Shown here: in pieces, positions 7,409 through 54,388 of the stretch | Layout: every line of letters starts with the position of its first letter | Numbering within the stretch: position 1 is the stretch's first letter | Source: an uncultured virus (IMG/VR IMGVR_UViG_2061766007_000491) | Taxonomy: Duplodnaviria; Heunggongvirae; Uroviricota; Caudoviricetes | Strand: one strand, 5' to 3' | Length of the DNA: 54,388 bases | Virus record (IMG/VR): IMGVR_UViG_2061766007_000491 | The notes under the pieces: generated by a model | Database searches by the model: none | Told to the model about the DNA's origin: nothing | The model's input: only the letters and a program-made list of their open reading frames with translations | Made by a program: the position numbers and the translations under genes

Positions 7409-7464
7409 CAGCAGTTATGTTTGTTGTGCTGTTACGGAGGATGCTGGAAAAGAAAAAAAGTTAA
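6381..7464 (+). pseudogene. C5-cytosine DNA methyltransferase frameshifted at a G10 tract (possibly phase variable)
   Basis: LFAGAGG, GGFPCQD, ENSP and HERKRMWI in frame 6381; motif X-like RLKATGNGQVP lies in the +1 frame after the G10 at 7217-7226. Confidence 0.85.
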
Positions 7465-10380: not shown

Positions 10381-10592
10381 AGATCAAAAAGGTATTAGAG
10401 GATTATGAAGCGGGTAAGATCAAGCTGTCACCTGCGTTTGTGGAAGAGTTGAGACAATACGGTGATGATAAGGTTTTACTGGCTATGCCTACCGTTGACG
10501 GTAATAAGATGATCGTGATGGATAAGACGAAAGCAACCGAGTTGTATGAATTAGCAAAAAAGGAGATACAGAAAAATGTATATAGTTTATAA
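10374..10592 (+). CDS. Hypothetical protein
   Basis: ORF in the coupled string. Confidence 0.6.
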   Translation: MLEIKKVLEDYEAGKIKLSPAFVEELRQYGDDKVLLAMPTVDGNKMIVMDKTKATELYELAKKEIQKNVYSL

Positions 10593-16016: not shown

Positions 16017-16092
16017 GTCCCCATAGCTCAAATGGATAGAGCAGTGGTTTCCTAAACCATAGATCGCAGTTCAATTCTGTGTGGGGATGCCA
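16017..16092 (+). tRNA. tRNA-Arg(CCT)
   Basis: GTCCCCA/TGGGGAT acceptor stem, anticodon arm GTGGT-TTCCTAA-ACCAT, T-loop, encoded CCA. Confidence 0.9.
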
Positions 16093-21237: not shown

Positions 21238-21255
21238 GTGTGTTTGAGGTGTGGG

Positions 21256-26443: not shown

Positions 26444-26627
26444 AGGGACGCTGAATTACAGCGTGACCTGATTGAATTTGAGATTGCGGATAAGATTGCA
26501 GGTCTGGCACGGTTATTAGACATTAGCGTACCTGAATTGCGTGAGCTAGTGCCAGTGGAAGATGATTTTGACCTGTTACATGAAATGTTCCGCATGGCGA
26601 TTGAGTATAGAGAAAAGAGGAAGCGAC

Positions 26628-28833: not shown

Positions 28834-31529
28834 TGAATCTGGAATCTGCATTATTGCAGCCTTTATGTGGGGTGGGTGGTTATCCGTTTTTAGAGCGGTT
28901 AAGCATTGCACCCTACTTATGTGGGAATGAGACTCTAAACTTAGGTAATCCTGAATGGGATGACACTGAGTTTAGAGTTTGTATTTTACAGCCTGGACAC
29001 TTGGAACCGAAGCTAATGAGCCACACATTGACGCAGTTGGTGGCTTTGATGCGAAAAGCAGAGGAAAAGACAGGTGTGCGGATGTATATAGACTTTGCGT
29101 TTCGCCCTGGGCAAAGGGATTGCGCTGAGTTGCGCAAAAAAGGTGTACCAGAGGTGTTCGGATGGACAAGTCTGCATGAACTGAGCGACTTTGATATGTT
29201 ATGTTGCTCTTTTTCAGTACATTTTGAGAGCGCAAGCATACTTCCAGTGCTATGGGGCGGTGGAATTGAGCCGTTCCACAGGAAAAGAGACCAGAAAACA
29301 CCGTTTGTAATGGGCGGTGGCATTATGGCACAGTATTTGGAAGCCTTGTTCGGGTATAAGGACGGTGCAGTGCTGGATTTACTGTTTCTGGGCGAGGGTG
29401 AGGGGCGTTTAACTGAGCTTTTAGAGGTATTAGTCAAGGAACGGTCACGGTTAAGATGGGATAGGTTAGGTGTTATACACGATTTGGTGACGAAGTTTGA
29501 TAACTTCTACTACCCAGACGGCTATGAACACGTTTATGAAGGTACAAAGCTGGTAGAGATCAGGAAACGCTTTGATTGGTGTCCCGATAAGGTCAAGTAT
29601 TATCGGAACTACAACCTGAGACCTACGATTTTTGAGAATAGACTGCTACTGACGGACAACGATCATGCTGGAAGGGCTGCGTTGCGTATAAGTCAGGGAT
29701 GCAGTGGTGCTGGGTGTTGTTCGTTTTGTACGGAAGGGAGTGAGGCTGGCCCTTGGCGTGAATACCCGATAGATCATGTAGTGGGTAAGTTTAATGACTT
29801 GGTGAGGTCATGCGCACCGAACCTATTAAGTTATTACGCATATAATCTTAACTTTCATAGTGGTTATGTGAAGTTGATGGAAGAGGCTGGCAAGCGGTTT
29901 GCCAACCAAAGTGTGATAGCGTTTAGGGCTGATGTGGTTGCGGAAACACCTGGATATATCCGTTTATTAAAGCAGATGGGAGCCAGCCGTATCACGATTG
30001 CATTAGAAGGGATTAGTGAGCGGATGCGTGTCATGCTGAACAAGAACGTGACATGGAACCACTTTGATAAGGTAGCAGAACAGGTGTTCGCCGAGGATAT
30101 TGGCGTGTTAAAAGTGAACCTGATCGTGACTGGCTATGAGACGCAAGAGGATTATGACGAGTTTATATCTAAGGTAGAGGCGTTTATCCGTAAGCGTGAT
30201 GAAGTGGGCAGTAGAGTTAAGTTGAGCTTTTCTGCAACTATACTGGTGACATATTGGAATACGGCTATGCAATGGAGTCCGAGAAGGTCAATAGTAGAAG
30301 CCATGAATACTGATAAGGTTTACCAGTTATTTGAACGGTGTCGTGCGTTAGGTGTGGCGGTCAAGTTGCATAGCGGTCACGAATACACGTTCCAACAGTT
30401 GATGATAGACGCAGGGCGGTCTATTACAGAGCCAGTGGTGCGCTGGTATAGAGCCGTATGGGAACAGAATAAGGCTTTGTTTTATCCGTTCGAGGACTTG
30501 AATAACAGGATATTTGAGTATCTGGGTGTAACAGACAGAGAAGCGTACTTTCTACAGGAACATGGGTACGGTGAACTGAATCCGACCAGCATCTACGATA
30601 TTATACCATACCAGACACAGCGTATGTGGTTCCAGAGACAGAGCTTGCCTTATTGTTTGAGGACACAGGCGAATAAGAATCCCAAGTGTCACGGATGTGG
30701 TCTGTGTAATGTGGACTTACGGAACACTATACTGACCAGAGCGGTGGAAACTGATTTGAATGTGCCTCTGGGACGGAATCAGGCACGTTCTACGCTAAGA
30801 GTGTATTATCAGATCGCAGGGAATGATTTTGCACGGTGTAGGCATAAGCTGGTGTTATGTCACTCTATCGCTGGTAAGTTGATAAAGATGCTGGGTCTGG
30901 AAGAGCAATTCCATTCTGTGTGTAATTACTCTGATGAAGCTATCACTGCGAACGGTCAGAATGACGTGTGGGATGGGTTCGGTGCGTTTGATATTGATTT
31001 CCGATGCGGATTACGAGAGTTGCAGAATAAAGTCCCCAGAACGCTCTACAGCGAGTTTAAGGATGGAAGGGTTATAAGTACCCAGACACTAGATAAAAAC
31101 GCCTTAGAAGTCAAATATGGAAGCGTATGGAGGTTTTATGCGAAACAATCCCCAGATGTACTGTCGGAACGGATGGATAAGTGGGATGGTACAGTGGTGA
31201 TACGGACACAGACGGATGCGGTTACGGTGCAGAATGGCACACTCTATGCTGACAGAAAGGACATGGGTTTGTGTTTAGGTGGTGGAGGTTCGGGCAGTGT
31301 GGGGTTTATGTACTTGGGGCATAGGCTGAATCCTTTAATGGTGTTAGCGTCTATGTTTAAGATACCGTTATTAAAGGTTAAAAGCGAGTTTAGGGTTTCA
31401 CGGCTGGGTTTATATCGGGATAGAATCGGAATCTGCAAAATGTGTGGTGGTGTGTCAGAGCGTGATGTGATTTCGCACTCGACCGCCGTGTGCGGTAAAT
31501 GCGCTTGTAAACTATACTATAGGAGGTAG
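28833..31529 (+). CDS. Large radical SAM protein
   Basis: ISQGCSGAGCCSFC cluster motif, FRAD, ITIALEGISERMR, GYETQED; C-terminal CxxC pairs. Confidence 0.85.
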   Translation: MNLESALLQPLCGVGGYPFLERLSIAPYLCGNETLNLGNPEWDDTEFRVCILQPGHLEPKLMSHTLTQLVALMRKAEEKTGVRMYIDFAFRPGQRDCAELRKKGVPEVFGWTSLHELSDFDMLCCSFSVHFESASILPVLWGGGIEPFHRKRDQKTPFVMGGGIMAQYLEALFGYKDGAVLDLLFLGEGEGRLTELLEVLVKERSRLRWDRLGVIHDLVTKFDNFYYPDGYEHVYEGTKLVEIRKRFDWCPDKVKYYRNYNLRPTIFENRLLLTDNDHAGRAALRISQGCSGAGCCSFCTEGSEAGPWREYPIDHVVGKFNDLVRSCAPNLLSYYAYNLNFHSGYVKLMEEAGKRFANQSVIAFRADVVAETPGYIRLLKQMGASRITIALEGISERMRVMLNKNVTWNHFDKVAEQVFAEDIGVLKVNLIVTGYETQEDYDEFISKVEAFIRKRDEVGSRVKLSFSATILVTYWNTAMQWSPRRSIVEAMNTDKVYQLFERCRALGVAVKLHSGHEYTFQQLMIDAGRSITEPVVRWYRAVWEQNKALFYPFEDLNNRIFEYLGVTDREAYFLQEHGYGELNPTSIYDIIPYQTQRMWFQRQSLPYCLRTQANKNPKCHGCGLCNVDLRNTILTRAVETDLNVPLGRNQARSTLRVYYQIAGNDFARCRHKLVLCHSIAGKLIKMLGLEEQFHSVCNYSDEAITANGQNDVWDGFGAFDIDFRCGLRELQNKVPRTLYSEFKDGRVISTQTLDKNALEVKYGSVWRFYAKQSPDVLSERMDKWDGTVVIRTQTDAVTVQNGTLYADRKDMGLCLGGGGSGSVGFMYLGHRLNPLMVLASMFKIPLLKVKSEFRVSRLGLYRDRIGICKMCGGVSERDVISHSTAVCGKCACKLYYRR

Positions 31530-33429: not shown

Positions 33430-36255
33430 ATGAGCAAGAAGAGTGATTATAAAGGTTTTGTATTCCACAGGATGTTCACCGAAGAAGGTGTAAGTCCTTA
33501 CGATACAGTGAAATGGAAGAAAACGACCGCCGAGATTACAGACGGTGCAGGTAACGTGTTTTTCAGACAGGAGAATGTGGAAGTCCCTGAGAACTGGTCA
33601 GAAATGGCTACTAAGGTGATTGTGTCCAAGTATTTCTACGGAAAGAACGGCACTCCTGAGCGTGAGAGCAGTGTGAAGCAGTTAGTCCACCGTGTGTGTA
33701 GGACGATTGCGGATTGGGGTGTGGAGCATGGCTATTTTGATAAGGCTAATGCTGATATTTTTTACGATGAACTGGCTTGGCTGTGTGTCCACCAGTACGG
33801 TGCGTTTAATTCCCCTGTGTGGTTTAATGTGGGCTTATTCCAGCAGTATGGTGTGGGTGTAGGCTCTGGTGAAGGGAATTGGGCTTACGATTGGAACACT
33901 GGCGATATTAAGAGGGCTAAGACACAGTATGAGAGACCACAGTGTAGTGCCTGTTTTATTCAGTCTGTAGAGGATAACATGGACAGCATTATGGAACTGG
34001 CTAAGAGCGAGGCTATGCTGTTTAAGTTTGGTTCTGGGACTGGTACGGATTTAAGTACGATCAGGTCGAGCAAAGAGGAACTGAGCGGAGGCGGTAAACC
34101 TAGTGGCCCATTGTCGTTCTTGAAGGTGTATGACCAAGTGGCGAACGTGGTTAAGTCTGGGGGCAAGACCCGAAGGGCTGCCAAGATGAATACACTGTTC
34201 GACTGGCATGGTGATATTAAGGAGTTTATCGAGGTCAAGTCTAAGGAAGAGAAGAAGGTACAGGCATTGATAAATGAGGGGTATGACCCTTCGTTCAATG
34301 GCGAGGCTTATGGTTCCGCTATGTACCAGAACGAGAACCTGTCTGTCAGGGTAACGGATGAGTTTATGCAAGCTGCCATAGATGATAAGCCCTGGTACAC
34401 TAAGGCGGTTACGGATGGACGGGTGCTTGAGGAACTGAGCGCAAAGGAATTGCTGTATGGTGTGGCAAAGGGTACTTGGGAATGTGGCGACCCTGGTTTG
34501 CAGTACGATGGTGCTATTCAGAAGTGGCATACTTGTAAGGCAGCAGGTAAGATAATGTCGAGCAATCCGTGTTCGGAATACCTGTTTTTGAATGACAGTG
34601 CTTGTAACTTGGCTTCGCTGAACCTGATGCGGTTTATCAATGACAAGGGCGAGTTTGACTTGGACTGGTTCTGTGAGGCAGTGCATTATTTCATTATCGC
34701 ACAGGAGATTATCGTGGATTGTGCGAGCTACCCGACTAAGAAGATTGCCAAAAACAGCCATAAGTACAGAGCGTTGGGCTTGGGCTTTGCGAATATCGGT
34801 GCATTACTGATGAGCTATGGTCTGCCCTATGACTCCGAGGATGGTCGTGGCATTGCTGGCTGTATCGCTGCGATTATGACAGGTCAGGCTTATGTGACTT
34901 CGGCGCAGTGTGCAAGCATACTTGGGCCTTTCGAGGGATATAAGGCGAACGAGGAGAGCATGAACGAGGTGATCGCCCTGCATACCAAGTGTGCGGAAGA
35001 GCTGAAAGTGCCTGATAAGTTTAAGTACCTGAAAGAATCCGCCGTGAACACATGGTCAGCGGTGGACACTTATAACTCGAATGGGTTTAGGAACGCACAG
35101 GTGACAGTGCTGGCTCCGACTGGAACGATCTCGTTTATGATGGACTGCGATACCACAGGCGTGGAACCTGACATTGCGCTGGTGAAGTATAAGTTCCTTG
35201 TGGGCGGTGGAATGCTCAAGATGACGAACCGCATTGTACCGATGGGGTTAAAGGCTCTGGGGTACAAGAAGGATGCCATTGAAAAGATACTGGCACATAT
35301 CCAGCAGTGGGACACCATTGAGGATGTAGTGGAGGATGGCAAGGTGTATCAGTCTGGTTTGAATCCTGACCACTTGGCCGTGTTTGACTGTGCGTTTAAG
35401 GCATTGAAGGGTAAGAGGAGTATTTCTCCGATGGGACACCTGCGGATGATGGCAGCGTGTCAGCCGTTTATTAGTGGGGCAATCTCTAAGACGGTGAATA
35501 TGCCACACGATTGTACGGTCGAGGATATTATGGAGACATACATTCAGGCGTGGAAGATTGGCTTGAAGTGTGTGGCTATTTATCGTGATGGTTCTAAGTG
35601 TAGTCAGCCATTGCGTACCTCTGGGGATGATGATAACCCCGTCACGAACGCTGAGATCGAAGCGTTAAAGAAAGAGAATGAGACTTTGAGCAAGGAAGTG
35701 GACGCATTGAGAGAGAAAGCGGACGCTCCTGTACGGCATAGGTTGAAGCCTGTGCGCAAGGCGATTACGCATAAGTTCGAGATCGCTGGACACGAAGGGT
35801 ACATGACAGTGGGACTCTATGAGAATGGCGAGCCAGGTGAGTTGTTTGTGACAATGAGCAAGGAAGGCAGCACGATCAGGGGTCTTATTGACGTGATTGC
35901 GACTTTGACAAGTATTTCGTTGCAGTACGGAGTACCTTTGGAGGATTTGGTGCATAAGTTTGAATACCAGAGGTTTGAACCGAGTGGGTTTACAGGGAAT
36001 CCTGAGATTCACACGGCAAGCTCAATCATTGATTACATTTACAGATGGATGGGTAAGCGATTCTTGGAACCCAAGACACAGGAAACGGTTACAGCGAATG
36101 AGAAGATAGCACCAGCTAAAGTAAATGAGTTCAATGAGGCAATCAGCCATTTTCAAAAGGATGCACCGATATGCCCAAACTGCGGGCATATCACGGTCAG
36201 GAATGGTGCTTGTTACAAGTGCCTGAACTGCGGTGACAGTCTGGGATGCAGTTAA
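33430..36255 (+). CDS. nrdJ: Class II (AdoCbl-dependent) ribonucleotide reductase with C-terminal TSCPD/Zn-ribbon
   Basis: FNSPVWFN, QCSACFI, SNPCSE, APTGTIS, GAISKTVN, YRDGSK, CPNCG...CLNCG. Confidence 0.95.
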   Translation: MSKKSDYKGFVFHRMFTEEGVSPYDTVKWKKTTAEITDGAGNVFFRQENVEVPENWSEMATKVIVSKYFYGKNGTPERESSVKQLVHRVCRTIADWGVEHGYFDKANADIFYDELAWLCVHQYGAFNSPVWFNVGLFQQYGVGVGSGEGNWAYDWNTGDIKRAKTQYERPQCSACFIQSVEDNMDSIMELAKSEAMLFKFGSGTGTDLSTIRSSKEELSGGGKPSGPLSFLKVYDQVANVVKSGGKTRRAAKMNTLFDWHGDIKEFIEVKSKEEKKVQALINEGYDPSFNGEAYGSAMYQNENLSVRVTDEFMQAAIDDKPWYTKAVTDGRVLEELSAKELLYGVAKGTWECGDPGLQYDGAIQKWHTCKAAGKIMSSNPCSEYLFLNDSACNLASLNLMRFINDKGEFDLDWFCEAVHYFIIAQEIIVDCASYPTKKIAKNSHKYRALGLGFANIGALLMSYGLPYDSEDGRGIAGCIAAIMTGQAYVTSAQCASILGPFEGYKANEESMNEVIALHTKCAEELKVPDKFKYLKESAVNTWSAVDTYNSNGFRNAQVTVLAPTGTISFMMDCDTTGVEPDIALVKYKFLVGGGMLKMTNRIVPMGLKALGYKKDAIEKILAHIQQWDTIEDVVEDGKVYQSGLNPDHLAVFDCAFKALKGKRSISPMGHLRMMAACQPFISGAISKTVNMPHDCTVEDIMETYIQAWKIGLKCVAIYRDGSKCSQPLRTSGDDDNPVTNAEIEALKKENETLSKEVDALREKADAPVRHRLKPVRKAITHKFEIAGHEGYMTVGLYENGEPGELFVTMSKEGSTIRGLIDVIATLTSISLQYGVPLEDLVHKFEYQRFEPSGFTGNPEIHTASSIIDYIYRWMGKRFLEPKTQETVTANEKIAPAKVNEFNEAISHFQKDAPICPNCGHITVRNGACYKCLNCGDSLGCS

Positions 36256-40899: not shown

Positions 40900-41621
40900 C
40901 AGATATTAGTTTTTGTGTAAGTTGGTCTAACTTTGTGCAGACCGTGAATGAGAAGCTGGAACATGGACTTGAGGATGGTACGTTCAAGTCTAACAAGGTC
41001 GAGATATGTGTGGATGAGGATGTTGTCAAGAAAGTGGGCTTTGATCTGATAGTGAATGAAGCTGTTGGTCAGATAAAGGCACATATCAGGGCTATGGGCA
41101 AGGGTGATGGCGGTAGGATTGATGTGGAGTATAGGGATGCCAGCTTTGATATTGTAGAAGGGAGTAAGGCTCGCTATGCAATTATAACGGATAATAGTGT
41201 TAGGGTCATGGTGGTGTCTAACCTGTGTACTAAACTTAGTATGAGTCACCCTGTGCTGGACAGCATCTTTAAGCAGGTGTGTGGTTCATTAGGAGAACTG
41301 ATGCGTACAGAGTGCAGAAAGGAGAATCTGGAACGGTGGAAGCACAAGGAAAACGTGGTTAAGATGTGTGTGCAGAGAACAGTGAGTAATGAACTGACGT
41401 TCTTTGCAAAGCATAACTTGGCTTATACAGTTAAACCTGGTACATTCAACAGTACATGGGATGTGGAGTTTAGTGAGAAGCATGAGACCTATACTCTGAC
41501 AGTGGACTTGGATATGTTTCTGGGTACGATCAAGGTGTATGTCCTGAACACTGCCAAACATAATGAGGTAATGGTATCGGAAACACTTGAATTTGAGAAA
41601 GTAAATGAGCATAACGACTAA
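40896..41621 (+). CDS. Hypothetical protein
   Basis: 241 aa, ATGA-coupled. Confidence 0.65.
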   Translation: MTDISFCVSWSNFVQTVNEKLEHGLEDGTFKSNKVEICVDEDVVKKVGFDLIVNEAVGQIKAHIRAMGKGDGGRIDVEYRDASFDIVEGSKARYAIITDNSVRVMVVSNLCTKLSMSHPVLDSIFKQVCGSLGELMRTECRKENLERWKHKENVVKMCVQRTVSNELTFFAKHNLAYTVKPGTFNSTWDVEFSEKHETYTLTVDLDMFLGTIKVYVLNTAKHNEVMVSETLEFEKVNEHND

Positions 41622-42795
41622 AAAAGGTGATGCGGGGATGACCGACATTCTGTTCGGTCAACGTGTGCGGAAGGATGACCTGCATATCCAGACCGTTGGG
41701 GCTATGGATATGTTTCAGGCACAGTTAGGCGTTATCCGTGCGAGAATCCCAGGCTGGAAAAAGAAGTGGGATGCGGTCAAGGATTGTAAGGACAGCACTA
41801 CAAAGGAATGGTCTGATGGGTTCTGGGACACGCTGGAAGGTGTGATCTATCGGGCAGAGATTGACCTACAGGCTGCAATGGGTGTATGTTCCACACCTGC
41901 GAGGGTCGAGAACAAGGTCACAGTGCAGTGGGGTAAGTTGTTCACCGATGAAAAGATAAAGCCGATGGAGGACTTGATACACTCTACAGAGAGTGTGTTA
42001 AAGGAAGCTGTGAAGGAAGGTGAAGTCAAGTGCGGGTTCTTAAAATCGAATTGGCTCGTTCCAGGCAGTGACCCTGTGAGCGCACAGTTTAACTTAGCCA
42101 GAACCTATTGCAGACACGCAGAGAGTTGTGTGTGGAATCTGGTGCTGAATAGATACCTGACTGATCGCTTAGAGCTTGCTGAGAGAGTGGCAAAGTGGCT
42201 GAACCGTTTGTCTGATGTGTTGTTTATCCTGACTCGGTATCTGGCCGAGCGAGTGATTCCACAGTATCGGTATTGGATGCACGAACGGAATAAGGCAAAT
42301 AACGAACGGAAACACCCCAAGAAGCTCTTTAAGGAGCTAAAGAGGGTAAAGACACTCACCCCACTGCAAAAATCCCTTGTATGGCGAATTGAGAACGCTT
42401 ATAAGCAAAATGATCTCATAGCCCAGAGACGGGATAAGCTGGTGCGGTATTTTATCCAGAAGGTTATAAAGCCGACTGTGAGGGTGAAGGACTGGAAGGG
42501 TCGGTATAGCCAATATACGATGATGACTTGTCAGGTATTCTTAGAGTTGGCGCAGAATCTATCGGATGCGGTGAAGCAGTGCAAGTGGGACTGGTTAGAG
42601 TTCTTTCATGCAAAGGGCGAGGGCTGGGATAAGATGGTGCTGGACGTGATTATCTATAGCAGTGAGGATAATTATGCGAAGTATGAGTACCTGTTTGATG
42701 TGCATTTGGATTGCTTGAAGCTGAAAGTGTACTATACCGATTATGAGACTAAAACGCTTATAACGGAGAAAAGTTTTTCTTATGAGAGTGTTTAG
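41605..42795 (+). CDS. PduO-type ATP:cob(I)alamin adenosyltransferase with an extra C-terminal domain
   Basis: ITTKKGDAGMT, RVRKDD, LARTYCRHAE, WLNRLSDVLFILTR; ~180 extra aa. Confidence 0.85.
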   Translation: MSITTKKGDAGMTDILFGQRVRKDDLHIQTVGAMDMFQAQLGVIRARIPGWKKKWDAVKDCKDSTTKEWSDGFWDTLEGVIYRAEIDLQAAMGVCSTPARVENKVTVQWGKLFTDEKIKPMEDLIHSTESVLKEAVKEGEVKCGFLKSNWLVPGSDPVSAQFNLARTYCRHAESCVWNLVLNRYLTDRLELAERVAKWLNRLSDVLFILTRYLAERVIPQYRYWMHERNKANNERKHPKKLFKELKRVKTLTPLQKSLVWRIENAYKQNDLIAQRRDKLVRYFIQKVIKPTVRVKDWKGRYSQYTMMTCQVFLELAQNLSDAVKQCKWDWLEFFHAKGEGWDKMVLDVIIYSSEDNYAKYEYLFDVHLDCLKLKVYYTDYETKTLITEKSFSYESV

Positions 42796-45126: not shown

Positions 45127-45203
45127 TGCCCTGTAGCTCAGTTGGATAGAGCGGGTGACTGTTAATCACTAGGGCGGTGGTTCGAGTCCACCTGGGGCAG
45201 CCA
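45127..45203 (+). tRNA. tRNA-Asn(GTT)
   Basis: TAGCTCAGTTGGATAGAGC D-arm, GGTGA-CTGTTAA-TCACT anticodon arm, GGTTCGAGTCC, encoded CCA. Confidence 0.93.
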
Positions 45204-45304
45204 TTTCTCTCTGTGATAGAGAGATTTATACAATACTTGTAAGAGGTTAGTTCTCCTTTCTTGACCTCTCTGTGTTGCAGGGTATTGTGTGTTCATATTG
45301 AATG

Positions 45305-45338
45305 CCGTGTGTAGCTAAGGTTATACACGGTTTTTTAT
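45305..45338 (+). terminator. Intrinsic terminator directly upstream of cassette array 1
   Basis: CCGTGTGTAGC-TAAG-GTTATACACGG followed by TTTTTT. Confidence 0.75.
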
Positions 45339-45341
45339 TGT

Positions 45342-46523
45342 CTGAATGGTGTTATCCGAGGTGGGCATTACAGTACAAGCAAGGTGTTATATGCTAGGTG
45401 TAGCGGATATAGGAATGCGCATAGTCATGTAGAGAGTCAAATAGGGTTTCGCTGTGAATGGTGTAGAAAGGGGTGGCAGATCAAATATAGCATCTAATAG
45501 TCAGAGGTGTGGGAGTAGGTTAGTGCATTACAGTAGGGGTACAGAGATAAGTTCCTTTGGGTTTCGTCTGTGAATGGTGTATTGATGGGAGGGGCAAATA
45601 GTAATGCAGCAATGTATGTGCGGTGTGGTGGGTATAGGAATGCAGATGGTACAAGATGGAACGCACATACAGCAGTGAGAGGGTTTCGCTGGGGTGTGAA
45701 TGGTGTAGAAAGGAGGGTGGATAGAGGTGCTAGGTGGATGTTAGCTAGTGATTATGTAAGAGCTAGTTATAGGGATGTTTCTAAGGTAGTGGCGATACAG
45801 GATATAATAGGGTTTCCCTGTGGATGGTGTATTCAGGGGTGGACGTGCAGGGTTACAATCTAGGTATATTAGGTGTGGTCTTAGGAATGGGAGTGAAGTT
45901 TTGAGTTATGGAGGTAGCGGAGTAGGGTTTCGCTGAATGGTGTAGTGAGAGGCAGTGGTTCCTATAAGGGTACGTCAGTAGTTTATTTTAGGAGTGGTTA
46001 TAGAATTGGGACTAATTTAAGGAGTAGGGTAGCAGAACACATAGGGTTTCGTCTGAATGGTGTACGAAGGGGTGGTACAGGTATAGTGTCAGTTACAATG
46101 TTTCAGGCGAACAGGGTAAGGTGTGGGAGTAGATACACTAGGCAATTTAGCGGTGATAGTAGTTTAATAGGGTTTCGTTTGGGGTGTGAATGGTGTAATA
46201 AGAGGCGGGAATTGGTCAAGGTTTCAGGGGGCAGATGCTTATAGATGTGGTCGAAGAGTAGGGAGTGTGTTAAGTAATGAAGTAGGGTTTCGTTCTGAAT
46301 GGTGCTATACGGAGTGGGAGATATAGCTACAGTCCGTTTTATATGCGAGGTGGGTATAGGAATAATGGTGCGTTGAGTTATGTGAATAAGACGTTAGGGT
46401 TTCGTTCTGAATGGTGTATATCGAGGTGCAGGTGCTATTAGTATGAATGTAATGTGGTTTAGAGGAGGTGAAAGAGGTGGGGTATATGCGAGGTCGTATG
46501 CGACTTCTAATGTAGGGTTTCGT
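45342..46523 (+). repeat. Cassette array 1: 10 variant C-terminal segments of the FGE/CLec-fold proteins
   Basis: Units start (C/G)TG(A/G)ATGGTG near 45342, 45454, 45570, 45696, 45820, 45933, 46053, 46186, 46295, 46407 and end GGGTTTC(G/C); each reads NGVxRG...GFR without stops. Confidence 0.9.
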
Positions 46524-46550
46524 TGACAACTCTCTGGGGCATGGTATAGT
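46523..46550 (+). promoter_or_regulatory. Sigma70-like promoter abutting the last cassette of array 1
   Basis: TTGACA-N16-TATAGT with TG extension. Confidence 0.65.
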
Positions 46551-46578: not shown

Positions 46579-48057
46579 ATGATAGATAGGAATTGGGTTA
46601 TAGATGTAGATGACATTGCTTGCTGGCTCGACCAGATGGACAATCCGCAACGGTATGGGGCGCAGAGCATGGGTAACTTCCCTGTGACGTGTGATGTGAG
46701 TTATCAGGGCAGTCCGTGTACGAATGTGTTTGGCTATTTACAGCCTGATTATGGCGGGAGTTATTGGCCTCCTGGGACGTATGCGCCTGGGTGGAGTGCA
46801 ACACTGCATAATGACGCTGTAAAGGTGACTGTGCCTGCTACATGGGGGGATTATTATTCCAGTGTAACGAGTCCTAGCAGTGGGTATCATGCGAAGTGGA
46901 TATTAGACAAGGACATACCTGGTGGCTTGATGATGGAAATGAATAATCCGTCAGGGGGCAACGGCGGTGTGGTCAACAGGGATATACGCTCTTGGGTGAA
47001 CATAGATGCGTTGTTATCACAGCAGAAGGAGTGTGTGATTAGCTTTGAGGGCAGAGGCAGTGCAGGGATGCAGGTACGCACAGCGGTTCATGGTAAGTAC
47101 GCAAGCGCAGATAGTAACGCTTTTCTGTATCAAGAGGACATTGATCTGGATGAGGCTTGGCACGAATACGCTGGACACTGGCATTGTACGGGTGTGAGCG
47201 GTTCAGGGAGTTTTTACTTTTTCGGGAATCTGGTGGCTGGACAGTTGCAGGTGCGGAATCCGATGCTGACTACAACAGGGAGGAAATGCAGATACACGCC
47301 TGGGACACGAGGGGCTACAGTGAATACGGGGGGTGGATGGCAAGATGTTACCTTTCAGGGTAACAATGTGGACTTAACAGACGGTGCTTTTGACTGGAAC
47401 GATTGGATTTTATCGCTTGGCAAATACTTCACAGATACCAGTTCCATATTGAATGTGGGGTCAGAGGTTATATCCCCGACTTATAACAGGTATAGGTTTA
47501 TCACGATTGAATGCTGGGTGCGTAAGAATAGCCTAGCCAGTGACGCTATAACGGACTGTGCCATATACGGAGCGCAGAATACAAGCGGTCTGGTGCTGAA
47601 TCGGTACGGTCAGTTTAACTTTGTATGTGCCAACAGTTCGAGCAATCTGGATAGGTATGAGTACCCTGGTATTGACAGCAATAGGATTATCCAGTATATC
47701 AATACCGATCAATGGTATCATGTCGTGCAGATGATAGGGAATAAGCACGTTTGTTATGTGAATGGTGTGAAGGTGCATGAGACGAGTGATCTGGCTTGGA
47801 ATCCCACCATAGGCACTAGCTTTAAGTTTTTACACGGAAATGCAGACTGGCTGACTCAGACAGTGAACACGAATAACAGCAAGTCCAGAGTCATGCAGAA
47901 TGGATGCTGGTCAGTGCAGTGCTTGAGAGTGTATAAACGGTTATTGACCGATGAAGAGGTTTTAGCGTGTTACAACGCTGAAAAGGAAATGTATGTGGGG
48001 GCGTTAGGTGATGCCTCTTTTGATACGAATAATATAGCGGATATAGCGTATGCTTGA
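46579..48057 (+). CDS. LamG/ConA-like lectin-domain protein with an upstream carbohydrate-binding-like domain (possible virion adhesin)
   Basis: ITIECWV, QWYHVV, YVNGV, LRVYKRLLTDEEV...YNA. Confidence 0.8.
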   Translation: MIDRNWVIDVDDIACWLDQMDNPQRYGAQSMGNFPVTCDVSYQGSPCTNVFGYLQPDYGGSYWPPGTYAPGWSATLHNDAVKVTVPATWGDYYSSVTSPSSGYHAKWILDKDIPGGLMMEMNNPSGGNGGVVNRDIRSWVNIDALLSQQKECVISFEGRGSAGMQVRTAVHGKYASADSNAFLYQEDIDLDEAWHEYAGHWHCTGVSGSGSFYFFGNLVAGQLQVRNPMLTTTGRKCRYTPGTRGATVNTGGGWQDVTFQGNNVDLTDGAFDWNDWILSLGKYFTDTSSILNVGSEVISPTYNRYRFITIECWVRKNSLASDAITDCAIYGAQNTSGLVLNRYGQFNFVCANSSSNLDRYEYPGIDSNRIIQYINTDQWYHVVQMIGNKHVCYVNGVKVHETSDLAWNPTIGTSFKFLHGNADWLTQTVNTNNSKSRVMQNGCWSVQCLRVYKRLLTDEEVLACYNAEKEMYVGALGDASFDTNNIADIAYA

Positions 48058-49249
48058 TTTTTTGGAGATAGTAGGGAGTAGTGCCACGTTTAAGTTGTCA
48101 GGTGGTGCGATCAGTAACTTTGCAAAGACACCGACCTTGAGGGTGCAGTGTATAGATCAACAGAACCATGCCGTGTTTGAATATACATTCACGGGAAGTG
48201 AATCTACAACGTATGGCAGTGCGTTACCGTATGGGTATTATGAGGTGCGTGTCGTGGCTTATAATAGCTATGGTCAGGTGGTCAGTAAGACAAAGCCGTT
48301 ACTTTTGTATAAAACACCGATGGCAGGGTTCGTGTATATTAAGAAAGGCACGTTCACGATGGGCAGTCCTGAAAGTGAAGTGGGACACCAAGCGAATGAG
48401 GCACAGCAGAGCTTTACCATAAGCAAGGATTATCTTATCCAGAGAACGCCCTGCACACCGAAGTATTTGAGTGCTGTTAAGACTGCGTATGCGACATTGT
48501 ATAACAGTGGGGTGACTCTGACTAGGGTTAAGATCACGAATGCGGAATGGTCAACCACAGCAATCAATCAGGGTACAATGTACGGTAGCTGGTCTGCCAG
48601 TGATGAGACGCCAGCAGTTAGTATCTCGTGGGAGCGTATCATGGATGTGGACACAGCGAATAGTACGATTAGTGGCAGTGCTGCGCCTTACACGGCTACT
48701 GCGACACCGTTCAGTAGTAGTGGTGTGGGTATCTGCACGGCGTTGAATGCGTTGAATCGAAGCGGTCAGGATTATTATTTGAGTGGGTATCAGTATTGTT
48801 TACCAACGGAATGCCAGTGGGAATTTGCGTGTAGGGCAGGTTGTTCCGATGCGTTGTATAATGACACGGCTTTGGATGCCACGACAACGCCAGCCTATAC
48901 AGCAGCCAGCAGTCCCCAGCCGAACCTATGCGAGATAGCTTGGTATAACTATAATTCAGGCGGTTCTAAGAAAAAGGTGGGATTGTTAAAGCCAAACGCA
49001 TGGGGGTTATACGATATGTTAGGGAACGTATGGGAATGGGTGCTAGACCAGTACAATGCGAGTTACGCAGCAGTAGCTACAGCAGGTGAAACGGTGCATG
49101 GCTCGCCAGTTTACACGGAAGTGTCAAGTGGCTCCTGGGGTGTGAATGGTGTATTAAGGGGTGGGCATTATGGGAATCAAGCTGGTAGGTTAAAGCAGAG
49201 AGCGAATGTATTGTTTAGNNNNNNNNNNATAGCTCTTAGCCCAGCATAG
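48050..49249 (+). CDS. FGE-sulfatase/C-type-lectin-fold protein, target gene 1 (N-gap in its variable tail)
   Basis: GTFTMGSP.SE, PAVSISW, LPTECQWEFACRAG, KPNAWGLYDMLGNVWEW, VLRGG; ends IALSPA* after the gap. Confidence 0.9.
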   Translation: MLDFLEIVGSSATFKLSGGAISNFAKTPTLRVQCIDQQNHAVFEYTFTGSESTTYGSALPYGYYEVRVVAYNSYGQVVSKTKPLLLYKTPMAGFVYIKKGTFTMGSPESEVGHQANEAQQSFTISKDYLIQRTPCTPKYLSAVKTAYATLYNSGVTLTRVKITNAEWSTTAINQGTMYGSWSASDETPAVSISWERIMDVDTANSTISGSAAPYTATATPFSSSGVGICTALNALNRSGQDYYLSGYQYCLPTECQWEFACRAGCSDALYNDTALDATTTPAYTAASSPQPNLCEIAWYNYNSGGSKKKVGLLKPNAWGLYDMLGNVWEWVLDQYNASYAAVATAGETVHGSPVYTEVSSGSWGVNGVLRGGHYGNQAGRLKQRANVLFXXXXIALSPA

Positions 49250-50320
49250 CGCAGTGTTGGAGGCGGAGCCGACAACAGCATAGGATTTCCACGGCGGATG
49301 CCGTTGTGCCGAAGGCACTTATGGTATATACTAATAGCAAGTATTTTTTACTTACTATTAGTATAATTATTTTATAAATAATAGAGCCATATTTAGTTAT
49401 GGATGTCCAGCCCGAAGAGGCGAGACGAGTGGGGATAGAAGGGATAATGGTGTATTAAGGGGTGGGCAGTATAGCAGGGATGCTTACTTAGCACGGTGTA
49501 GTGGGTTAAGGAATGGATGGGGGAAGTGGAATCAAGGTGGTGGAGTAGGGTTTCGTATTGGGGTCGAGTCCGCAGAGACCAGACGGCAGTGGTTGAATGG
49601 TGGTGTAATAAGGGGAGCAGGGTTAGGGTATGCTTATGCTTTCAGGACGAGGGTAGGTTTTAGGTTGACAGGATATAACTTTAAGTATAGTAGTGTAAGT
49701 GACTTAGGGTTTCGTTGTGGGGTAGGCGTGAATGGTGTAAGAGCGGATAGAGGCGGTAGATGGGGTTTAGGGTCAGATTATATACGTTGTAGTTATAGGG
49801 ATAGGAGTAGTCAAGGGAGTGGTGGTGATAAGGTAGGGTTTCGCTGAATGGTGTAAATAGGGGAGGTTGCATTAGGGCAGAAGAACCAGCATGGAGGGTA
49901 AGGAATGCTAGTAGGATGAATTGGTATGGTTTAACGCATACATGGAATATAAAAGGGTTTCGTCTGAATGGTGTTAGTAGAGGTGGTGCTTATGTGCGAA
50001 CAGGAGGTCATACTAGGAGTAGTGGGAATAGGTGGCATAGCAGTTCAAGGGTGGATGTGAATAGTGGAATAGGGTTTCGTTCTGAATGGTGATTATAGAG
50101 GGGGTTCGTATAAAAGTGGGCAACCAATGTATATTAGAATTGGTTATAGAAGTGGTTTTAGTAGGGGGTATGTGAGTGTTTACATAGGGTTTCGCTGTGA
50201 ATGGTGTGTTAAGGGGTGGAGTATATACAAGAACAGGTGAATACAATAGAAGTAGTGGGTATAGGTTTAATAGAGTAATGACGTTAGTGAATAGTGGAAT
50301 AGGGTTTCGTTTTGTGTAAA

Positions 50321-50338
50321 TTGTTCCACGTGGAACAA
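50321..50338. promoter_or_regulatory. parS-like palindrome, copy 1
   Basis: TTGTTCCACGTGGAACAA matches the bacterial parS consensus TGTTNCACGTGNAACA. Confidence 0.75.
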
Positions 50339-50592
50339 AGGTGAATGGTGCGTTAAGGTCGTATGCGTATGATAGAGCCAGTTTGTATATGAGGAGTGGA
50401 AATAGACGGTCTTATGCAATTAGTGGGACAGGTACAGGTGGTGCATTAGGGTTTCGTTTAGCTGTGAATGGTGTCCGTAGGGGTGGATGTAGCTTAGGGT
50501 CTTTTAGTAATGCGTTTTTTAATAGAATTGTTTATAAGCGAGTTACTGCTATGGATTATGTGTATAATGCGTTAGGGTTTCGTTTGTGTAAA

Positions 50593-50610
50593 TTGTTCCA
50601 CGTGGAACAA
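50593..50610. promoter_or_regulatory. parS-like palindrome, copy 2
   Basis: TTGTTCCACGTGGAACAA with the same TTTGTGTAAA flank as copy 1. Confidence 0.75.
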
Positions 50611-53098
50611 AAGGAATGGTGTCTATCGAGGTGGGCAGGTTGATTCATCCAGTGCAGATAAGCAATGTGTGTCTTATAGGAGTAGTTATCCAGTATTGAG
50701 TTATGTGAATAAGACGTTAGGGTTTCGTCTGAATGGTGTATTGATGGGAGGGGCATATAGTAATGCAGCAATGTATGTGCGGTGTGGTGGGTATAGGAAT
50801 GCAGATGGTACAAGATGGAACGCACATACAGCAGTGAGAGGGTTTCGTCTGAATGGTGTATATCGGGGTGGCAGTGTGACACAAACGGCTAGTGTAGTGA
50901 AGGTTAATTATAAGAGAGGAGATAAGAGGGGCATGACGTATCAGGCAGTAGGGTTTCGCTGAATGGTGTATTGAGAGGTGGAGCATCTAATTCAGCAACG
51001 GTATGGTATTATCGCAGTAGTGGATATAGGAATGTTAAAGGTTTAGAGATAACAGCGGAAAATAGAGGGTTTCGTCTGAATGGTGTGCAGAGAGGTGGGT
51101 CGTGGTTTAATGTAAGTGTGTATTCAAGACATGGTTATAGAAGGGGTGTTGCTTTTAATACTATAGGTAATACAGCGTTTGGGTTTCGTTCTGTGTGAAT
51201 GGTAGTGGAATAGTAAGGGGAGGAGGGTATCATTATCATGCTACAGGTTTTAGATGTGGGAGGAGGATGGCTAGGGCGAATGAATCGTCATTAGGGGGGA
51301 TTTATATAGGGTTTCGCCTGAATGGTGTATATCGGGGTGGAAGCAGTAGTACAAGTTTAGCTAGTAATACGAATAGGAGTGGGCATAGGAGAACAAGGGA
51401 AAAGAATGTAAGTGGGATGAGTGCAGTAGGGTTTCGTATCTGAATGGCGTGGCTAGGGGTGGACAGACAAGTAATTTAGTGGATAGATATAGAAGTGGGT
51501 ATAGGTGGGTATCGAGTGCGAGGACGTATGTGCATGGTGGGATAGGGTTTCGTGCTGTGGGGTGAATGGTGTAATAAGGCCAGCGCATAAGATACATCAG
51601 GCATATATGTATAGGTGTGGAATGAGATATGGATATGCAAGTAGGAATACGGCATGGAATGGATATATAGGGTTTCGTTTATCTGAATGGTGTAGCCAGA
51701 GGTGGATATTATAGTGCAACGTATGGTCATGCAAAGGATTGTAGGAGTGGAAGGAGACGTGAGGACTTTAATAGGAGGGTGGGCAATGTGGTGATAGGGT
51801 TTCGTTCTGAATGTTGTGGTTCGAGGTGGGGCTTATAACAATAGTTCAGATAGGTGTATATGTGCAGGGCATAGGAGGAATACTTATACAAGACCAACAG
51901 CGAATAGTGCGGTAGGGTTTCGTTTGGGGGTGTGAATGGTGTATTGAGGGGTGGGCAGTATGGGAATCAAGCTGGTAGGTTAAAGCAGAGAGCGAATGTA
52001 TTGTTTAGCTATAGTACGGCTTATGTAGGGTTTCGTTCTGAATGGTGCTAGGCGGGCTAGTAGGGTAAACGAGGTTAATAGTGCTAAGGAAGAAAGGTGT
52101 GCGTGGAGAACTCCGAGGGAACGAGATTCAGGGAATGCGAGTATAGGGTTTCGTTCTGAATGGTGTAGATCGTGGGGGCAGTACACATATTAGCTGGAAG
52201 GCATATCAGTATAGGGTTGGGAATCGTGAGACTAACACTAGGAGGACATCAGGGGGTGGATTAGGGTTTCGTTTGGGGTGTGAATGGTGTATTACGGGGG
52301 TCGGGATATAGGAGTCCGTCAATGGAGTTTAGGAATGGTGGGCGTAGGTATCAGAACTATAAGAAGAGTCAATCAGCGGAGAGCTTAGGGTTTCGTTTGA
52401 GGTGTGAAGGGTGCTAGGAGGAGTGTTGCGTTTGATAATACGAACTTTGCAACGTATGGAAGGAGTGGTCGAAGGAATGGAAGCAGTGCTAGGTCGGACA
52501 GAGCGATATACATAGGGTTTCGCTGAGGGTGTGAATGGTGTAGTGTTAAGAGGGGGTGACGCATGGAATACGCTAANNNNNNNNNNNNNNNNNNNNNNNN
52601 NNNNNNNNNNNNNNNNNNNNNNNNNNNNNNNNNNNNCTGAATGGTGCTAGTAGGGGTGGGTATTTTAATAACAGTGCAAGTCTGTTTAGATGTGGTGGAT
52701 ATAGAAATAGCGGTTCATTGAGTTATGTGCATAGTGGGATAGGGTTTCGCTGGGGTGTGGATGGTGTAGAAAGGGGTTGTTATTATAGTTCTAGTTATGG
52801 GTATGCTTCTAGGACTAGGAGCGGACGCAGACAGAGTGTTACAGTGGGTAATGATAATCCAGCAGTAGGGTTTCGCCTGAATGGTGTACGTAGAGGTGGC
52901 GCACATGAGCAGGTATCGAGAAGTGTGAGGTGTTCGTGGAGGGTTGCTAGGTTAAGGGACAATCCTAGTGCCACGTTCGGGTTTCGTCTGAATGGTGTGA
53001 ATCGAGGTGGGAGTTATACGCAGTACAATTTAGTGTATATGTATAGAAGTGGTGGGTTAAGACAACCGTATGTAAGGAGTCATCCATTAGGGTTTCGC

Positions 53099-53127
53099 TT
53101 GACGTTCTGATATGTGTTTGATAGAGT
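53099..53127 (+). promoter_or_regulatory. Sigma70-like promoter abutting the last cassette of array 2
   Basis: TTGACG-N17-TAGAGT followed by GGGGTCGGCTATATTG, like the leader after array 1. Confidence 0.5.
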
Positions 53128-53158: not shown

Positions 53159-54388
53159 ATGTACGATTTTTTGGAGATAGTAGGGAGTAGTGCCACGTTT
53201 AAGTTGGTGGGTGCAACGCAGAGCGGTTTTGTTAAAGCACCGACATTGAAGGTGCAGTGTGTAGATCAGCAGACGCAGATGGCTTATGAAGAGCCGTATT
53301 ATGGTACGGACGCAGCACAGTATGGAGCGAAACTGCCATGCGGTTATTTTAAGGTGCGAGTGGTCGCCTATAACGAGTACGGTATGGAAATGGCTGGCAC
53401 TAAGCCGTTATACCTGTATAAGACGCTGGTTCCTGGCTTTGTGTATGTCAAGAAGGGTGCGTTTAAGATAGGCAGTCCGTCAACCGAAGTGGGACACCAG
53501 AGCAACGAGAATCAGGCGAACTATGTTTTGACACAGGATTTTATGATACAGCGGACGTGTTGCACGGGTGCGTATCTAAGAGGTGTAGCAGACGCATACC
53601 ATAGTCTGACGAAAACAGGCATTACACGGACACAGATCACGAATGCGACTTGGTACAGTCCTGAGCCAGCATTGCCAGCGGATATGTTCAACTATTCAGG
53701 CAGTGCTGCATGGGTGGGTACAGATGAAACGCCAGCGGTGAGTATATCATGGGAGAGGATTATGGACGTGCAGACGACTAACGCTAACAGTACGGTGAGC
53801 AATCATGTGGCGGTGGCTTATCCGTTCGCTGATTATGCAGGGGTGTGTACCGCTCTGAACGCTCTGAATAGTGCCAGTGATACGGACTATGGATGCAGTG
53901 GGTGGGTTTATACATTGCCGACCGAAGCACAGTGGGAGTACGCTTGCAGGGGTGGCACGACTACGGCGTTATATAACGGTACAGGGCTGGATATGACAGC
54001 AGTGCCGAGCTATACGACAGCGAACAGTCCACAGCCTAACTTGCAGAGGATTGCATGGTACAATTACAATAGCTATGGAAGCAAGAAGGTAGTGGGTCAG
54101 CTAGAACCGAACAGGTGGGGGCTATACGATATGTTAGGGAACGTATGGGAATGGGTGTTAGATCAGTATAATAGCAGTTATACGAGTGTGCTTAATGGTG
54201 GCGAGACACTACACGGGTCGCCAGTTTATACAGAAGTCACCTCTAACTCCTGGGGTGTGAATGGTGTAGTGTTAAGAGGGGGTGACGCATGGAATACGCT
54301 AACAAGCGCAAGTGGATGGAGGTGTGGACGCAGGTATGGGTATAGGAATGTAGGCCCTACTTATACTGGAAAGGCTTTAGGGTTTCGT
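53159..54388 (+). CDS. FGE-sulfatase/C-type-lectin-fold protein, target gene 2 (runs off the window; absent from the ORF track)
   Basis: Frame MYDFLEIVGSSATFKL...LPTEAQWEYACRGG...NRWGLYDMLGNVWEW...WGVNGVVLRGGDAWNTLTSASGWRCGRRYGYRNVGPTYTGKALGFR; paralog of 48050-49249. Confidence 0.9.
   Translation, partial: MYDFLEIVGSSATFKLVGATQSGFVKAPTLKVQCVDQQTQMAYEEPYYGTDAAQYGAKLPCGYFKVRVVAYNEYGMEMAGTKPLYLYKTLVPGFVYVKKGAFKIGSPSTEVGHQSNENQANYVLTQDFMIQRTCCTGAYLRGVADAYHSLTKTGITRTQITNATWYSPEPALPADMFNYSGSAAWVGTDETPAVSISWERIMDVQTTNANSTVSNHVAVAYPFADYAGVCTALNALNSASDTDYGCSGWVYTLPTEAQWEYACRGGTTTALYNGTGLDMTAVPSYTTANSPQPNLQRIAWYNYNSYGSKKVVGQLEPNRWGLYDMLGNVWEWVLDQYNSSYTSVLNGGETLHGSPVYTEVTSNSWGVNGVVLRGGDAWNTLTSASGWRCGRRYGYRNVGPTYTGKALGFR

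Follow-up and report, generated by a model that had tools for sequence, protein, structure and literature searches.

The 54,388-nucleotide stretch of DNA analyzed here (the window; IMG/VR record IMGVR_UViG_2061766007_000491) derives from a large uncultured rumen phage and carries two paralogous genes encoding adhesin-like proteins, hereafter gene 1 and gene 2, together with two arrays (A1 and A2) of short silent cassettes that correspond to the variable 3′ ends ("tails") of these genes. The data presented below make it probable that the binding tip of the two proteins is varied by a cassette gene conversion that is non-reciprocal and independent of reverse transcriptase (RT), the transfer presumably taking place from the array to the gene.

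Gene 1, the first expression site (48050–49249, + strand; PF03781, E 4e-26), contains an N gap at 49219–49228, and the visible part of its variable tail (NGVLRGGHYGNQAGRLKQRANVLF...) occupies positions 49145–49218 of the + strand; gene 2, its paralogue and the second expression site (53159–54388, + strand; PF03781, E 8e-28), leaves the window at GFR, at the end of its variable tail (54260–54388, + strand). The replaceable module, which begins with NGV-RGG and ends with GFR, takes up the last 34–43 codons of either gene, and a 35-nt block in front of the tail is common to both genes (49008–49042 = 54123–54157). Array A1 (45345–46523, + strand) comprises 10 tandem silent cassettes of 35–41 codons each, running from NGV to GFR in an open GFR frame with varying junction phases, and array A2 (49446–53098, + strand) comprises 29 complete silent cassettes and one cut by an N gap (52577–52636), for a total of 39 complete cassettes plus the gap-interrupted one. 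The motif GGGTTTCG is found 39 times in the window, every copy being on the + strand, compared to 0.66 occurrences expected by chance.

Expressed tails and their silent copies

A previous, sequence-only reading of this DNA had claimed that the tail of gene 1 matches the A2 cassette beginning at 51932 with only two differences in 77 nt, and that the persistence of the donor in the array indicates copying rather than excision or inversion. The comparison of 49142–49218 with 51932–52008 bears out the first claim, in that 75 of the 77 nt agree and the two differences (gene/cassette) are A/G at 49156 and T/G at 49168; the translations that had been quoted for the gene 1 tail and for the cassette are also correct. 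The final 50 nt preceding the gap of gene 1 (49169–49218) are identical to 51959–52008 within this donor-like cassette (51932–52036, + strand), and the first 23 nt of the tail (49145–49167) match exactly, as had likewise been noticed, the beginning of another cassette (49446–49468); the gene 1 tail may accordingly be a mosaic of these two cassettes, point mutation being the alternative. That this likeness is out of the ordinary is confirmed by the background, since the protein identity within the 741 pairs of cassettes has a median of 0.37 and a 99th percentile of 0.54. Furthermore, when the cassettes are aligned to the tail of gene 2, the start of another A2 cassette (52527–52576, + strand) turns out to be identical to 54253–54302 over the whole 50 nt that precede the N gap by which it is cut.

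Thus, both genes have an identical or nearly identical silent copy in A2, all cassettes are in direct orientation, the window is devoid of invertase and integrase, and the tail of a related protein (P0144) is identical to a cassette of a related contig (L130, see below). These findings uphold the view that tails are copied with the donor being kept, as opposed to excision or inversion; as judged from these comparisons, the donor is retained in the array.

The content of the gaps was approached by comparing Logan k=31 contig pieces of two sequencing runs (X1 and X2) with a map of the repeated 31-mers of the window, the run data being contigs, which drop minor variants. The pieces end at 46402, 48085, 49037, 50725, 51988, 52556, 53194 and 54152, as predicted from the duplicated 31-mers. 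One piece begins at 52007 and not at 51979, indicating that the shared stretch extends to 52036, the T with which GGGTTTCGT ends, and 30 letters of the piece starting at 52637 belong inside the N gap 52577–52636; both observations fit tails that are identical to the cassettes through GFR. In a relative present in run X11, GGTTTCGTCTCGCA is found ahead of 49235, yielding GFR-LALSPA*. The closure ...SYSTAYVGFR-IALSPA* that had been predicted for gene 1 agrees with the boundaries of the contig pieces and with the C-termini of the relatives, and is in this indirect manner supported. A mis-scaffolded duplicate, which the same reading had considered as an eventuality, is disfavored by the two single-base differences and by the fact that each copy has a context of its own.

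Cassettes as coding units with conserved borders

When read in the frame anchored on the GFR codons, not one of the 39 complete cassettes contains a stop between NGV and GFR, whereas the other two frames contain 124 and 188 stops, respectively, and leave none of the 39 open; when the bases of the cassettes are shuffled (2000 trials), a mean of 1.9 and a maximum of 7 of the 39 remain open. By this test, every cassette is shown to be competent for coding. The cassettes are 102–123 nt long and the next one mostly follows after 2–12 nt, with junction phases 0, 1 and 2 all being represented; no long open reading frame (ORF) extends across the arrays and no ORFs separate neighboring cassettes. Given these mixed phases, the arrays do not constitute one gene or one reading frame. 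The cassettes are endowed neither with a start nor with a promoter or an end of their own and terminate at GFR; R, G, S, Y, A, V and N are abundant in their interiors, and C represents 9.4% of their bases compared to 18.8% in the body of gene 1.

The three terminal codons are GGG and TTT in 39 of 39 cassettes and CGT or CGC in 38 of 39, whereas the internal Arg residues are mostly encoded by AGG or AGA (152 of 183) and only 55 of the 176 internal Gly residues by GGG; at the other end, the first two codons are AAT (36/39) and GGT (37/39). This codon usage shows the cassette borders to be conserved at the nucleotide level, beyond the needs of the protein. The resulting boundary boxes can be written (TGGGGTG)TGAATGGTGT at the 5′ side and (TA)GGGTTTCGY at the 3′ side. 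The expressed tails are bounded by the same boxes, with exact matches to many cassettes over 12–21 nt at the 5′ side (...TGGGGTGTGAATGGTGTA...) and over 12 nt at the 3′ side (TTAGGGTTTCGT). A Chi-like reading of TGAATGGTG was weighed, dropped and not used.

It could be argued that no selected system exists, the arrays being a decaying tandem duplication of the 3′ end of the gene and the identities being due to incidental recombination or to scaffolding artefacts. Indeed, both matching pairs adjoin N gaps, assemblies of repeats are fragmentary and one of the relatives (P0137) displays an odd join. However, this reading is at variance with frames that are open in 39 of 39 cassettes compared to a mean of 1.9 in the shuffles, with synonymous sites that are fixed at the boundaries, with the two single-base differences by which gene and cassette can be told apart, with contig pieces of two runs whose ends are those expected of two distinct contexts, and with the independent ENA and JGI contigs that read body-tail-ALSPA, for which repeats of no more than 21 nt would have to be crossed twice. 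In light of these data, this explanation is regarded as very unlikely.

Elements flanking the genes and the arrays

A terminator-like hairpin (45304–45331, + strand), consisting of a 12-pair stem followed by TTTTTATT with its T run, is located immediately upstream of A1. Directly after the last A1 cassette there is a predicted promoter-like site (TTGACA-16-TATAGT with TG, 11 of 12 matches; 46523–46550, + strand), beyond which lies the gene of a 492-residue Laminin_G_3 (concanavalin-like) protein (46579–48057, + strand; PF13385, E 1e-9) that is conserved in L130. The end of this gene overlaps the start of gene 1 and the two genes are probably co-transcribed. A second promoter-like site (TTGACG-17-TAGAGT with TG; 53099–53127, + strand), also a prediction, directly follows the last A2 cassette.

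Between the stop codon of gene 1 and A2 there is an AT-rich near-perfect palindrome with 17-nt arms and a 5-nt spacer (49327–49365), preceded by small GC hairpins at about 49290–49322, and the region behind gene 1 folds with z = −4.9; these structures are candidates for a role in termination or in the formation of breaks. A perfect 18-bp palindrome, TTGTTCCACGTGGAACAA, is found at a cassette junction of A2 (50321–50338) with a second copy at 50593–50610, each being preceded by GTGTAAA. The same palindrome occurs with unrelated flanks in runs X1 and X11, where there are loose ends near 50308–50320 and 50592, a finding that identifies it as a small repeated element present also in other contexts.

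In each of the runs X1 and X2, a single contig (depth 14.7 and 18.1, respectively) matches many cassette junctions, though over 23–35 letters only. This suggests that the same phage possesses at least one further cassette array beyond the window, possibly located after gene 2; that these short joints are products of recombination is less favored, the finding of one contig per run being best read as a further array.

Tails and cassettes of related phages

A protein search with gene 2 yielded three close clusters, of which 27 sequences (3 representatives and 24 members) were read and, after leaving out 3 tail-less fragments, 24 were retained. The bodies of 11 of these relatives are 0.91–0.98 identical to gene 1 and those of the other 13 are 0.83–0.99 identical to gene 2, and these 24 proteins display 23 distinct tails of 34–40 residues. 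The tails of six relatives match silent cassettes of the window with identities of 0.76–1.00, compared to a 99th percentile of 0.54 in the null distribution: the tail of P0142 is identical to cassette c50467 (1.00; 39/39 residues), that of P0143 is close to c52283 (0.95), those of P0001 and P0130 to c45573 (0.92), that of P0140 to c51443 (0.81) and that of P0132 to c51935 (0.76). A further case is offered by L130, a 2.5-kb metagenome contig on which an A1-type array ends and gene 1 starts and which also carries the Laminin_G_3 gene; its first cassette is identical to the tail of P0144 (37/37 residues) and its gene 1 start to the first 80 residues of the same protein. Only one of the six L130 cassettes has a counterpart in the window and the repertoires of cassettes therefore differ between strains.

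Paralogous bodies, which are 61% identical, can carry nearly the same tail, as seen with P0122/P0135 (0.95) and P0134/P0141 (0.81). Since P0140 starts like an L130 cassette and ends like c51443, thereby resembling a mosaic of two cassette types, and since cassettes can be shared in part (c46298 and c50615 have in common only the last 33 nt, c45573 and c50732 share 91 nt), the exchange looks segmental and appears to occur also among the cassettes themselves. In P0001, the body is of the gene 2 type (0.95) save for the ~35 residues adjoining the tail (DQYNASYAAVATAGETVHGSPVYTEVSSGSW), which are of the gene 1 type; this hybrid indicates that the two expression sites also exchange sequence with one another, probably via the shared 35-nt block.

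The relatives bear on two alternatives in which the arrays are not donors for copying. According to the first, the arrays are archives that store formerly expressed tails, sequence being transferred from the gene to the array or old tips being pushed aside as happens with the Rhs/CdiA orphans. The direction of transfer is inferred only, open frames could stem from a recent origin of the cassettes in expressed tails, and the arrays vary strongly from strain to strain, as seen from the single shared cassette of L130 and from the different order of cassettes in other assemblies. On the other hand, the cassettes stop exactly at GFR and are devoid of stop codon, of [L/F]ALSPA tag and of the 3′ flank expected with a displaced tip, and having no end of their own they are not displaced orphan tips; A1 is located upstream of the Laminin_G_3 gene and not behind a gene of the lectin-fold type; the same cassette types are expressed as tails in other strains; and the cassettes are strongly diverged (median identity 0.37) and yet free of stops, which points to continuing selection through use. 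An archive function is thus deemed quite unlikely.

According to the second alternative, a reciprocal crossover between the 5′ box of the gene and that of a downstream cassette deletes the intervening DNA, so that the gene comes to read into the array. The A2 cassettes are indeed placed downstream of gene 1 in direct orientation, and 4 of the 24 proteins of the relatives (P0130, P0131, P0134 and P0136) continue past the tail into the cassette or junction behind it. However, 20 of the 24 retain the end GFR-[L/F]ALSPA*, the donors are retained in the window, A1, being upstream, could not act in this way, and a library used in this manner would be irreversibly consumed. Moreover, P0130 is the same as P0001 save for the sequence after the tail, as expected of two graph branches arising from a duplicated stretch. 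The four tail-to-cassette proteins have the form that an assembler would give to a tail with an identical copy in the array and are read as further signs of donor retention; that they are real deletion products is the alternative, and a mechanism based on deletion is considered very unlikely.

A search with an array ORF identified six array-derived ORFs in other assemblies, in which the cassettes occur in different orders; no new match between a tail and a cassette was found in this search. In P0137 (119 residues, from an 809-nt ENA contig), a cassette junction is joined to the interior of gene 1, which is followed by a frame-shifted cassette, only ~4 nt apparently being shared at the first join; this protein could be either a product of illegitimate recombination or a chimeric assembly and shows that contigs of this locus have to be read with caution.

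The expressed proteins

Gene 1 and gene 2 are full ORFs, each encoding an N-terminal β-sandwich followed by a domain having the formylglycine-generating enzyme (FGE)-sulfatase/C-type-lectin fold, and the matches obtained in a sequence search of the PDB include PvdO, TvpA (2Y3C) and FGE. The same two-part architecture, with an FGE/C-type-lectin-like domain behind the β-sandwich, is found in a structure model of the gene 1 orthologue P0142, built from a 49-row alignment (predicted local distance difference test, pLDDT, 70; predicted template modeling score, pTM, 0.75), whose best matches among solved structures in Foldseek are PvdO, formylglycine-generating enzymes and TvpA. In the BFVD, Microcystis phage LMM01 provides the best match of the model, the FGE-like protein of this phage, and the N-terminal part of the model gives weak FN3-like matches. 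The stretch NGV-RGG...GFR is presumed to be the ligand-binding surface, and the two proteins would be located on the virion, where they would set the host range.

Retroelements and site-specific recombination

The architecture just described raises the possibility of a retroelement similar to the diversity-generating retroelements (DGRs), in which case the arrays would serve as a set of template repeats for an RT encoded outside the window, and reverse-transcribed copies of the cassette transcripts would home into the tails. Both the scaffold and the position of the tail are as in DGR variable proteins (PF03781; TvpA, 2Y3C, among the matches), the variable region being, as in DGR targets, at the C-terminus of a protein with the C-type-lectin/FGE fold; furthermore, hairpins are present downstream of the gene 1 tail and the window covers just 54 kb of the genome. 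However, neither RT nor Avd was found with Pfam and PHROG profiles in the ORFs of at least 90 residues on both strands of the 54-kb window (56 on the + strand, 31 on the − strand and 5 additional ones on the + strand), an RT elsewhere being possible. In addition, none of the 34 adenines of the cassettes is changed in the gene copies (0/21 and 0/13 in the two pairs) and both differences between gene 1 and its cassette are at cassette G positions; the tail of P0142 reproduces c50467 in 39 of 39 residues; the tails are of variable length and the templates would be 39 different ones instead of one; and A1 is flanked by terminator-like and promoter-like sites. The unchanged adenines, the lack of RT and Avd in the window, the varying tail lengths and the 39 templates indicate that, as far as the window shows, the system is not a DGR, and this mechanism is considered highly improbable. 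As to the hairpins and the palindrome with 17-nt arms found after the stop codon of gene 1, a pair of initiation-of-mutagenic-homing sites (IMH/IMH*) cannot be defined in the absence of a template repeat.

The Pfam and PHROG scans of the window failed also to detect any serine or tyrosine recombinase, invertase or integrase and, all units being direct repeats, the system is not an inversion switch. Likewise, no G-quadruplex motif (loops of at most 7 nt) is present throughout the window and no deaminase was found in the scans of its ORFs.

A model for the proposed conversion

In the cassette conversion that is favored here, a cassette or a segment thereof would be copied into the expression site with the donor being left in place, so that the binding tip would change while the body and the C-terminal tag [L/I/F]ALSPA* would stay unchanged, the exchange being guided by the short boxes at the 5′ and 3′ boundaries. 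A break or a stalled fork at or near the tail would be resected by a Rad50/Mre11-like nuclease; the 3′ end would then invade or anneal at the 5′ box of a cassette or at internal patches with the participation of UvsX, and synthesis across the cassette would be followed by recapture at the GGGTTTCGY box or at an internal patch, i.e., by synthesis-dependent strand annealing. Rare events of this type would be enough in large phage populations.

The phage may well supply the required activities itself. Indeed, the window encodes a UvsX/RecA-like recombinase (19201–21237, + strand; PF00154, PF14890, phrog_97), which is interrupted between its RecA-like parts by an intein (PF14890, residues 66–377), an SbcC/Rad50-like ATPase (21238–22515, + strand; Pfam/PHROG scans) and an SbcD/Mre11-like phosphoesterase (26562–27533, + strand; PF00149, phrog_100), and we infer that this recombinase and this nuclease perform the exchange. 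RecA-family recombinases normally need homologies longer than the boundary boxes and, the boxes being short for a RecA-type exchange, annealing or template switching may outweigh classical strand invasion.

Several points weigh against the conversion model. The shared boxes are short (12–21 nt at the 5′ and 8–12 nt at the 3′ side) and the enzymology is consequently uncertain. Both gene/cassette pairs are cut by N gaps, and their identity over the full length is deduced from the boundaries of contig pieces. The best match of the remaining 18 of the 24 tails with a cassette of the window is 0.44–0.65, none reaching 0.76, although the repertoires do vary between strains, as noted above for L130. 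Variation of the tails is seen between assemblies only and not within one population or over time, and odd joins such as that of P0137 mean that some of the contigs of the relatives could be chimeric. Finally, the genome is larger than the 54 kb of the window and an RT could be encoded in the remainder, and the silence of the arrays, the location of the proteins in the virion and their binding to a receptor are predictions.

A more ambitious version of the model, which can be put forward only tentatively and with some doubt, is that of a programmed, RT-independent generator of diversity, with a germline-like library of about 40 or more cassettes being written at high frequency, as a whole or in segments, into at least two lectin-fold adhesins, following breaks made at a dedicated site, which might be the palindrome or the hairpins behind the tail, by an SbcCD/Rad50-Mre11-like cut and repaired with UvsX from the boxes of the cassettes.

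Comparison with known systems

The DGR variable proteins, such as Mtd of Bordetella phage BPP-1 and TvpA of Treponema denticola, resemble the present ones in being diversified at the C-terminus of a C-type-lectin/FGE fold, in the RGG...GFR framing and in the carriage by a phage. However, DGRs rely on an RT, on Avd, on a single template and on adenine mutagenesis, whereas in the window none of these is seen and at least 39 pre-made cassettes of varying length are present instead.

In Borrelia burgdorferi, the vlsE expression site lies beside an array of promoterless cassettes with short direct repeats and undergoes a unidirectional, often segmental conversion in which the donor is kept; the product is a bacterial surface lipoprotein that serves the evasion of host immunity, and the genetics of vls is RuvAB-dependent and RecA-independent. 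The phage locus shares with vls the expression site adjoining contiguous promoterless cassettes with short repeats at their borders and the retention of the donor, but the carrier is viral instead of bacterial, the fold is unrelated, and two expression sites draw on one pool, the arrays lying on either side and being oriented like the genes. Neisseria pilE/pilS and the chicken pseudo-V genes likewise rely on many truncated silent donors and on a non-reciprocal transfer into one expressed gene, with products that are mosaics; pilE requires a G-quadruplex with a small RNA and the chicken conversion is started by AID. The window differs from both in having no canonical G-quadruplex motif with loops of 7 nt or less and no deaminase detectable in its ORFs.

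The invertible tail-fiber segments and shufflons (Gin/G of Mu, Cin/C of P1, Rci of R64) also swap the C-terminus of an adhesin, thereby altering the host range, and make use of inverted sites and of a dedicated recombinase to offer 2–8 alternatives; here, on the contrary, the repeats are direct, neither invertase nor integrase was found and the alternatives are about 40. The orphan cassettes of Rhs/CdiA (cf. PMC3482391) are similar in that stand-alone C-terminal modules with a short conserved junction are located near a full gene, but they are few and possess a stop codon of their own and an immunity gene, whereas the present cassettes are bare coding units of 102–123 nt without a 3′ end. The gp38 adhesins of T4-type phages (cf. 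PMC3157838) also have short variable segments framed by conserved motifs that are thought to be mini recombination sites; the exchange takes place in that case between co-infecting phages, with no silent library within the genome, while the window does contain one.

Of the features that characterize the class of silent-cassette systems, four are found in the window, namely full genes with predicted promoters, partial copies that are competent for coding, shared borders and retention of the donor. Full-text searches returned work on DGRs, on antigenic variation in bacteria, on gp38 and on polymorphic toxins, with no cassette library for a phage lectin-fold protein being described in the parts consulted. 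Antigenic variation in bacteria and eukaryotes provides the precedents for this class of mechanism, and what is new is the carrier and the scaffold.

The phage and its wider kin

The gene content of the window, as seen in Pfam and PHROG profile scans, is typical of a large phage; everything in the window reads on the + strand, the GC skew is 0.19–0.58 and the DNA of the window is present in bovine and sheep gut metagenome runs from nine studies, two of the best-matching ones possibly stemming from the source sample and no RNA run being among those listed. In addition to the recombination genes mentioned above, it encodes a class II ribonucleotide reductase, thymidylate synthase, DHFR, an RNA ligase, several DNA methyltransferases, glycosyltransferases and one crAss001_48-like protein. 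A radical-SAM protein of 898 residues (28833–31529), the class II (B12-dependent) ribonucleotide reductase (33430–36255) and a protein with a cobalamin adenosyltransferase domain (41605–42795) are found in one region, a grouping that suggests B12-linked nucleotide metabolism. A D12-class N6-adenine methyltransferase is present as two ORFs (5550–6376 and 6376–7464), which correspond to the N- and C-terminal halves of PF02086, and the signal of a C5-cytosine methyltransferase is split across the overlapping frames 6381–7265 and 6376–7464; these splits could be frameshifts, sequencing errors or programmed.

The window encodes tRNA-Arg(CCT) (16017–16092) and, directly upstream of A1, tRNA-Asn(GTT) (45127–45203, + strand), and the Rfam scan detected nothing apart from tRNA. 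Inside the cassettes, Arg is most often encoded by AGG (99 of the 183 internal residues), and the Asn codon AAT opens 36 of the 39; the phage may supply its own tRNAs for the codons of the tails.

A search of INPHARED returned 12 records, all of them less than 60% identical, and thus no close cultured relative, the RNA ligase being at most 42% identical to those of the INPHARED phages; nor was a close relative found in IMG/VR, where 17 loci displayed an identity of at most 48%. A scan of IMG/VR for the pattern of the cassette junctions gave 57 single matches and no array, and the same scan of metagenomes gave at least 119 stretches, L130 being the only true relative among the matches listed. 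Of 195 loci examined, only L130 contained two or more spaced motifs. L080 was ruled out as a relative of the arrays, since it is a telomere-like repeat; of the loci obtained from genome contigs with the double-junction pattern (2 matches), L195 proved unrelated when read and L194 lacked an array in the motif scan. Tandem Repeats Finder, applied to the 195 loci, detected nothing but a pentapeptide-repeat gene in L002. This IMG/VR contig, which has a high GC content, also encodes (9602–10735) an unrelated FGE-domain protein with three in-frame tandem copies of the C-terminal RGG...G[FL]R module, separated by acidic linkers; this repeat is translated and is therefore unlike the arrays of the window, which are silent.

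Implications

To our knowledge, the receptor-binding proteins of phages are retargeted by three routes, namely mutagenic retrohoming by DGRs, invertible segments and exchange between phages. If the conversion proposed here is true, the copying of a stored library of silent tips into an expressed gene would constitute a fourth route and, as far as the literature searched goes, the first cassette-type "antigenic variation" in a virus of bacteria. The scaffold used by DGRs would be diversifiable without a retroelement, a premise that bears on the evolution of this scaffold, and the breaks of metagenome assemblies at such loci would find an explanation. Furthermore, a fixed lectin fold with a swappable tip of 34–43 residues and defined junction boxes would represent a compact natural design for programmable binders. 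Should the programmed, high-frequency version also prove true, the system would be the phage counterpart of the antibody conversion of chicken and of Borrelia vlsE, built on the scaffold that DGRs mutate. As for the biology of the rumen, the locus may offer a route to the dynamics of host range in this habitat.

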